64,000 nucleotides of DNA, taken from the NCBI RefSeq assembly GCF_053078305.1, contig NZ_CP166879.1, one strand, 5' to 3'. The translations under genes and the position numbers were made by a program. Below, piece by piece: positions 32,373 to 32,981 of the stretch. Under the pieces are notes generated by a model that did not search any database, was not told where the DNA came from, and worked only from the letters and a program-made list of their open reading frames with translations. The first letter of the stretch is position 1. Each line of letters starts with the position of its first letter.

Positions 32373-32477
32373 ATGAACGATCAAATGTTCGTCGAGACAC
32401 TGATTATCACGTCATCGTTTTTTGCCATTGCTGTTGTGCTGGTTTTGTCCGTTCTGCTTATTGAACGGACAGGCTAG
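32373..32477 (+). CDS. yoaI: Tiny membrane protein YoaI (34 aa)
   Basis: Not in ORF track; ATG 32373, TAG 32475-32477; encodes [34 protein letters not shown]. Confidence 0.6.
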
Positions 32478-32981
32478 TTACGCAGTGCGGCGGAAATTGA
32501 CCAGTTCTGGTTGCGCAATGCGCAAATAATCCGCGGTTTTCAAAATAACGGATTTATCCAGCATGCCTGCATTGAAGGCGATTTCATCAAATCGTTCGAA
32601 GAGTAGGGGGTCGGCAACCAGTTTGAGTTTTGGATGGAAGCTGAAAGGGGGGATCGCGCCGAAGACACAGCCTGTGAGTTCATCGACTTCCGCCGGGCTG
32701 GCCAACGAAGCGCGTAATCCGCCTATATGGCTGGCGAGTTGGCTCAGATCGGCCTGTTGATCGGCAGCGAGGATCGCCAGAACATGTTGATTTACGCCAT
32801 TGCCTTTGACTTTACATACCAGTGCCTTAGCCCCCTGGCCTAAAGCGGTGCCACGAATTTCTGACACCGCTTCACATTTACCTACCGCTTCATGGGTAAC
32901 GACGCGGAAGTCTGCACCTTCTTGTGATAATAAAGCGATTAACCGCTGATGCGTCACGCTTCCTTTAGCCATTTCAGTCAT
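32478..32981 (-). CDS. yeaK: YbaK/ProX-type aminoacyl-tRNA deacylase YeaK
   Basis: 167-aa ORF; stop codon abuts the yoaI stop. Confidence 0.88.
   Translation of the reverse strand: MTEMAKGSVTHQRLIALLSQEGADFRVVTHEAVGKCEAVSEIRGTALGQGAKALVCKVKGNGVNQHVLAILAADQQADLSQLASHIGGLRASLASPAEVDELTGCVFGAIPPFSFHPKLKLVADPLLFERFDEIAFNAGMLDKSVILKTADYLRIAQPELVNFRRTA

Follow-up and report, generated by a model that had tools for sequence, protein, structure and literature searches.

yoaI and yeaK of Escherichia coli meet at abutting stop codons: a known convergent pair with overlapping transcripts and an ordinary zero spacer

The closest described counterparts of the junction studied here are the convergent excludons of E. 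coli MG1655, in which the 3' ends of neighboring transcripts overlap and give rise to double-stranded RNA and RNase III products. The excludon concept goes back to Sesto et al. 2013, and the more recent ExcludonFinder study (Sanmartin et al., NAR 2025, PMC12288877) lists 165 convergent excludons detected in at least 50% of 58 MG1655 transcriptomes. Table 1 of that study names yeaK-yoaI as a convergent excludon, and the neighboring pairs yeaL-nimR, yeaO-yoaF and pdeD-yoaE appear in the same list (PMC12288877). The yeaK-yoaI pair resembles the class in its overlapping 3' ends, its double-stranded RNA and its RNase III products, whereas the functional hallmark, mutually exclusive expression, is not demonstrated for this pair, for which one data set offers a 1.7-fold change. 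Membership in the list should also be read with the geometry in mind: at a spacer of zero, two genes register as overlapping in ExcludonFinder almost automatically once both are expressed.

Other known arrangements bear a partial likeness to this junction. Convergent genes whose ends overlap by 4 nt (TTAG, CTAG, CTAA or TTAA), such as mntP/rlmA, sugE/blc and yjfP/ulaR in E. coli, likewise lie tail to tail without room for a terminator, but they share stop-codon bases, whereas the TAG/TTA junction of yoaI and yeaK in Escherichia shares none. Rho-dependent suppression of antisense transcription was reportedly described by Peters et al. in 2012. The yeaK-strand RNA antisense to yoaI is limited by Rho in a similar manner, with bicyclomycin raising the coverage downstream; unlike the products of spurious antisense promoters that Rho suppresses, however, this RNA is the untranslated tail of a normal mRNA. 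Finally, the same two genes occur in the same orientation in the Enterobacter clade, where a hairpin followed by a U-run in the spacer is predicted to end yeaK transcription, while Escherichia has neither a spacer nor such a hairpin.

In the window, the whole 64-kb stretch of DNA that was analyzed, yoaI (32373-32477, + strand, 105 nt, ATG at 32373) encodes a small membrane protein of 34 aa and yeaK (32478-32981, - strand) a protein of 167 aa. The earlier note had claimed that the stop codons of the two genes abut, and reading the window directly confirmed this: the TAG of yoaI occupies 32475-32477 and the TAA of yeaK, read as TTA on the + strand, 32478-32480, giving the junction ACA GGC TAG/TTA CGC, whose six stop-codon letters (32475-32480) lie 0 nt apart with no base in common. 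Its description of a zero-spacer convergence is equally borne out by the window sequence, the open reading frame list and RefSeq, the RefSeq/PGAP annotation placing yoaI and yeaK flush in ES5, in a K-12-like strain and in MG1655. The layout is that of a convergent excludon, with neighbors on opposite strands, tail to tail and 0 nt between them, and the coding sequences do not overlap in the window or in any of the 8 Escherichia species representatives, the stops sharing no bases. Beyond yoaI lies yeaL (DUF441; 31757-32203, - strand), on the same strand as yeaK and supported by the open reading frame list, the annotation and a domain match. The gene order is therefore yeaK (-), yoaI (+), yeaL (-), with yoaI antisense within the yeaK-yeaL intergenic region.

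The identities of both genes are well supported. RefSeq names their products "small membrane protein YoaI" and "mischarged aminoacyl-tRNA deacylase". The + strand open reading frame ending at 32477 contains the whole 34-aa YoaI, which matches the NCBIfam equivalog NF041475 at 79.8 bits (cut-off 45) over residues 1-34 of 34. YeaK matches the Pfam tRNA_edit family PF04073, a YbaK/ProX-type trans-editing domain, with E = 3.3e-27 and 95.5 bits against a gathering score of 25.5, and the yeaK product has been published as the trans-editing factor ProXp-ST1. By annotation and domain match, YeaK is thus assigned as the mischarged aminoacyl-tRNA deacylase ProXp-ST1. The abutment is where two known genes are annotated as meeting tail to tail, and both the arrangement and the transcript overlap had previously been annotated or published.

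Of 5426 complete E. coli genomes, 5411 match a 901-nt query of this locus, and 5404 cover at least 80% of the query. Over this query the window locus is 100% identical to ES5 and 98.8% identical to K-12-type strains. In E. coli Ec-2939 (NZ_CM192133.1), query bases 1-340 of 901 alone match, and the locus is broken within yoaI or at the yeaK start. To place the zero spacer among its peers, convergent pairs were collected from the ES5 annotation across the window and two additional stretches of that genome, 50 kb each, together 164 kb and 22 pairs. The 11 annotated pairs of the window have spacers of 116, 92, 50, 0, -44, 21, 58, 53, 119, 3 and -4 nt, and the 11 pairs of the other two stretches have spacers of 192, -4, 150, -18, 116, -4, 131, 42, 76, 54 and 61 nt. 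A spacer of 3 nt or less is found in 7 of the 22 pairs; the 4-nt stop-codon overlap is the commonest tight state among them, and exactly 0 occurs only in yeaK-yoaI. The zero spacer is a statistically ordinary value, no more than chance. The next pair along, nimR (+, ends 31800) and yeaL (-, ends 31757), is tighter still, with a convergent overlap of 44 nt in coding sequence (31757-31800). Mapped from the ES5 annotation, mntP/rlmA shows a 4-nt convergent overlap at window positions 74-77, and pdeD/yoaE converge 3 nt apart at 6301-6303.

The comparison was extended to 80 species-level loci encoding close YeaK relatives, in each of which yoaI was then located. In 39 of the 80 loci, yoaI is convergent and directly follows yeaK. 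Two further loci, from Huaxiibacter chinensis (L029) and Enterobacter asburiae (L031), carry an insertion of approximately 2.2 kb that splits yeaK from yoaI, and the tight junction is lost there. All 8 Escherichia species representatives and Cedecea have a spacer of 0, and in the other genera the spacer varies between -4 and +30 nt. It is -4, with the junction letters TTAG, CTAG, CTAA or TTAA, in Salmonella enterica subsp. arizonae and diarizonae, Trabulsiella, Yokenella, Pluralibacter and one Enterobacter sp.; +1 to +9 in Citrobacter koseri/amalonaticus; +14 in Kosakonia; and +5 to +30 in Enterobacter/Lelliottia, where most loci of the Enterobacter clade have 20-22 nt. The YoaI peptide itself is conserved across genera with the same C-terminus. 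On the strength of this comparison, the tight tail-to-tail arrangement appears widespread, and the exact zero would be a lineage state that is neither conserved nor itself selected.

Where yoaI is missing, as in Klebsiella, Raoultella, the C. freundii group and Atlantibacter, yeaK is followed by same-strand yeaL after 60-190 nt; where yoaI lies flush against yeaK with yeaL next, the yeaK-yeaL gap is 250-330 nt. A search for a diverged yoaI in Kluyvera, the Citrobacter freundii group and Klebsiella, using a YoaI profile and reading of opposite-strand open reading frames, found none. Three Kluyvera loci (L035, L054 and L072) and one other locus (L041) lack yoaI and yet have a yeaK-yeaL gap of 247-325 nt, as long as in yoaI carriers. 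This long gap without yoaI may mark a gene that was lost or replaced.

Published data provide several views of transcription across the junction. In Supplementary file 2 of Adams et al. 2021 (PMC7815308), MG1655 position 1874225 is given as a Rho termination region for the yeaK strand, of the class antisense to yoaI, with a Rho score of 2.8 and p = 1e-5. Bicyclomycin raises the coverage downstream of this region from 36 to 166 (PMC7815308). Carried into the window through the MG1655 annotation, the highest Rho score falls at approximately 32330 (- strand), 148 nt past the yeaK stop and beyond all of yoaI, a coarse position given the 800-nt windows in which it was scored. The supplements of that study hold a single Rho-region entry for yoaI and no entry named yeaK (PMC7815308). 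In the sequence itself, no C-rich, G-poor Rho loading region was seen downstream of either stop codon.

Double-stranded RNA from the locus was captured by Huang et al. 2020. Their RNA table gives antisense against sense total RNA counts for yoaI in rich medium of 13.4/2.4, 3.8/2.2 and 2.6/1.9, with the meaning of the columns taken from the count pattern and the text of the paper. Their Table S3 assigns two small RNAs to yoaI, UCGUUCAUAGCAUGCCCCCGGG (166 reads) and CGGGGGCAUGCUAUGAACGAUC (210 reads). Both were located in the window, where CGGGGGCAUGCUAUGAACGAUC/UCGUUCAUAGCAUGCCCCCGGG form a duplex of yoaI mRNA with yeaK-strand antisense RNA carrying 2-nt overhangs: a p19-captured, RNase III-type RNA duplex of 22 bp (32359-32382, both strands) that covers the Shine-Dalgarno sequence and AUG of yoaI. 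This duplex is scarce (about 2 reads per million) and belongs to a set of approximately 1,600-1,900 duplexes of 22 bp in a study in which 87% of genes give some double-stranded RNA (Huang et al. 2020). Transcript overlap and RNase III-processed double-stranded RNA, two features of excludons, are thus both present for this pair in published data, the double-stranded RNA at low abundance. No mapped 3' end for the yoaI mRNA was found in published data.

The sequence around the junction offers little to stop either polymerase. No credible intrinsic or bidirectional terminator was found at or near the Escherichia junction, either by a consensus scan or by our own lenient scan, and a bidirectional terminator in the form of a GC-rich hairpin with A-tract and U-tract between the stops has no place at a spacer of zero. 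With no spacer and no terminator hairpin, the junction offers neither transcript a point at which to stop between the genes, and the two must overlap. Strong local structure is confined to a perfect 9-bp inverted repeat, TGTCCGTTC / GAACGGACA, in the last yoaI codons (32446-32471, arms 32446-32454 and 32463-32471), which forms the core of a larger predicted fold across the junction (z-score -3.35). The repeat is not an intrinsic terminator because a U-run is absent on either strand. We also considered the hairpin as a conserved functional RNA element and rejected this, as it has no U-run and is kept only in part of Escherichia, being lost elsewhere through synonymous changes such as arginine CGG to CGT, AGA or CGA. 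It is mere speculation that the hairpin might act as a protective stem at the 3' end. An Rfam scan of 31700-33200 returned no family at the junction, and its lone sub-threshold match, to JUMPstart inside yeaL (E = 0.13, 20.9 bits against a threshold of 35), was taken as chance.

The relatives appear to solve the same problem differently. In most Enterobacter-clade loci, with spacers of 20-22 nt, the first 30 nt past the yeaK stop contain, read in the yeaK sense, a GC-rich hairpin and then a U-run, as in GGCTGAC-GATCCG-GTCAGCC TTTTCTTTC (loci L032, L034, L036, L050, L052, L066 and L076). The yoaI stop codon, TCA on that strand, falls within the 3' arm of this hairpin, and the final codons of yoaI are complementary to the U-run. 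Judged by these features, the hairpin is a predicted intrinsic terminator for yeaK. Farther along the yeaK strand, Citrobacter, Klebsiella, Raoultella, Pseudocitrobacter and Kosakonia (loci L009-L082) share a conserved element of A-tract, long hairpin and U-tract immediately 5' of the yeaL ribosome-binding site. It is predicted to fold at -19 to -35 kcal/mol in the majority of these loci versus -9.7 in E. coli, and it shows compensatory changes in 3 of 6 predicted stem pairs. Escherichia keeps only the 3' half and a 5-bp stem, visible in the window as a degenerate remnant (CCTGC...GCAGG then a U-run; 32219-32257, - strand) right before the ribosome-binding site of yeaL. The element was probably an ancestral terminator for yeaK-strand transcription. 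It is also degenerate in Enterobacter and has no Rfam match, and an invariant GCGTAnAGT motif in its loop may serve yeaL as a -10 promoter element.

Any interference between the two genes would depend on yoaI being expressed, the point on which the earlier note had staked its proposal, and the gene is strongly expressed under phosphate limitation. A PhoB box, TGTCATCAAACTGCCATT, lies upstream of yoaI, and its position was checked in the window (32306-32323, + strand); the motif and a ChIP-seq site for yoaI are given in Table 1 of Fitzgerald et al. 2023. PhoB binds this box, and the strong transcription that it drives under phosphate starvation heads toward yeaK. RNA-seq counts for yoaI at low phosphate are 11755/12778 in the wild type and 32/23 in a phoB deletion, an induction of approximately 440-fold. 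YoaI itself is an inner-membrane protein that was detected in membranes by western blot, is activated by PhoB and binds EnvZ, as reported in the YoaI study. In the same RNA-seq comparison, yeaK counts are 389/413 in the wild type and 709/655 in the phoB deletion (log2 -0.8, or approximately 1.7-fold, with q = 0.0115, which falls narrowly outside the q < 0.01 class of the paper), and the upstream dgcJ, named yeaJ in the table, is unchanged (+0.4, not significant). Library preparation was done with the ScriptSeq kit. ScriptSeq is a directional library kit. The two genes move in opposite directions, with yoaI up about 440-fold and yeaK down 1.7-fold, but several hundred genes in the table shift as much as yeaK does. 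The fall in yeaK fits interference or antisense destabilization in its direction; it could also be an indirect effect of the phoB deletion. Of the transcriptional interference that the earlier note had suggested, the overlap therefore stands, supported by the excludon list, the Rho region and the double-stranded RNA, while functional interference is not demonstrated.

Taken together, we consider it probable that yoaI and yeaK are a flush, known pair with overlapping transcripts and weak coupling, that their zero spacing is unselected, and that Rho acts in place of the terminators found in relatives. According to the published data, yeaK-strand transcription runs antisense through all 105 nt of yoaI, and Rho stops it near the yoaI promoter. 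The yoaI and yeaK-strand RNAs meet as double-stranded RNA, which RNase III cuts at the yoaI ribosome-binding site. In the other direction, PhoB-driven yoaI transcription is expected to enter the 3' end of yeaK antisense. The coupling between the genes is likely weak, with about 1.7-fold less yeaK mRNA accompanying an approximately 440-fold induction of yoaI. Escherichia has neither the Enterobacter-type spacer terminator nor the full hairpin upstream of yeaL, and Rho appears to replace them; the degenerate remnant upstream of yeaL supports such a replacement.

A more ambitious interpretation would make the pair a regulatory excludon, in which PhoB-driven yoaI lowers ProXp-ST1 in phosphate starvation, yeaK read-through and RNase III silence yoaI when phosphate is replete, and the flush layout has been kept for that purpose. 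The presence of the pair in the published excludon list, the opposite movement of yeaK mRNA and yoaI in wild type versus phoB deletion with dgcJ unmoved, an RNase III duplex exactly on the yoaI translation start region and the maintenance of tight convergence, at -4 to +30 nt, in many genera would all agree with it. However, a response of just 1.7-fold to a 440-fold induction is undistinctive in its data set, and most Enterobacter-clade loci would insulate yoaI by a spacer terminator, such that the overlap across yoaI is not retained everywhere. Many lineages also lack yoaI beside an intact yeaK, and the relevant literature yielded no functional link between tRNA editing and phosphate signaling; we therefore regard this interpretation as unlikely. 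It is narrower to propose that the antisense tail of yeaK, pairing at the yoaI ribosome-binding site and AUG and cut there by RNase III, explains the post-transcriptional rise of YoaI in low magnesium. The YoaI study found that low magnesium raises YoaI protein without a change in yoaI transcription, reported the induction as acting on translation initiation and left its mechanism unexplained, and the duplex sits exactly on the region where translation starts. The magnesium dependence was nevertheless seen with a chromosomal yoaI-SPA fusion. Insertion of an SPA-tag cassette should separate the tagged gene from downstream read-through. Such a cassette should therefore part yoaI from yeaK read-through, which counts against the proposal and leaves it, in our estimation, a long shot. 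If it were true, read-through of a tRNA-editing gene would be tied to the cross-talk of PhoR-PhoB, PhoQ-PhoP and EnvZ-OmpR.

Two further explanations concern the organization of the locus itself. As a noncontiguous operon, yeaK and yeaL would be co-transcribed with yoaI embedded antisense and the two units in mutual antagonism. The layout is right, with yeaK and yeaL on one strand and yoaI antisense between them, and taxa without yoaI usually have yeaK and yeaL only 60-190 nt apart. Inhibition of Rho also lifts the coverage past the termination region (36 to 166), but read-through rises only with bicyclomycin, and in untreated cells the Rho termination region stands between yoaI and yeaL. In most relatives, moreover, yeaL is directly preceded by a terminator-like hairpin, the very low counts for yeaL do not follow those of yeaK, and ExcludonFinder (PMC12288877) lists just three noncontiguous operons, this locus not among them; we consider such an operon very improbable here. 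It might finally be asked whether the junction is an artifact of annotation, with yoaI not a real gene or its ends misplaced, given that it has only 34 codons and that a longer in-frame open reading frame starts from GTG (32325-32477). The sequence nonetheless sets the stop regardless of the choice of start codon, and the peptide keeps the same C-terminus across genera. We rejected this explanation, which is almost certainly wrong, because western blotting has detected the protein, because it is PhoB-regulated and because it matches a curated family (NF041475) over its full length.

Reading the locus as a weakly coupled pair whose transcripts overlap, with Rho standing in for the terminators of relatives, has mainly practical consequences. 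Edits at the 3' end of either gene, for instance a C-terminally tagged YoaI, a yoaI deletion or a yeaK knock-out, touch the untranslated tail of the other, and studies that use such strains to draw conclusions on YoaI signaling or ProXp-ST1 editing should include controls for the shared 3' region. The locus may also serve as a small example of how termination is solved anew after a spacer is lost, with a spacer terminator in most Enterobacter-clade loci, a hairpin in Citrobacter and Klebsiella and a Rho region in Escherichia. The overlap is real, ordinary and known in the literature as a candidate excludon, and it carries little weight as a discovery.

Two minor features of the window were recorded along the way. 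The TAG stop of yoaI forms a CTAG (32474-32477, within GGCTAGTTA), one of 9 CTAG in the 64-kb window, where approximately 250 would be expected from base composition. In the ES5 annotation, topB, encoding DNA topoisomerase III, is a frameshifted pseudogene, which by mapping from ES5 lies at approximately 59588-61550 of the window.
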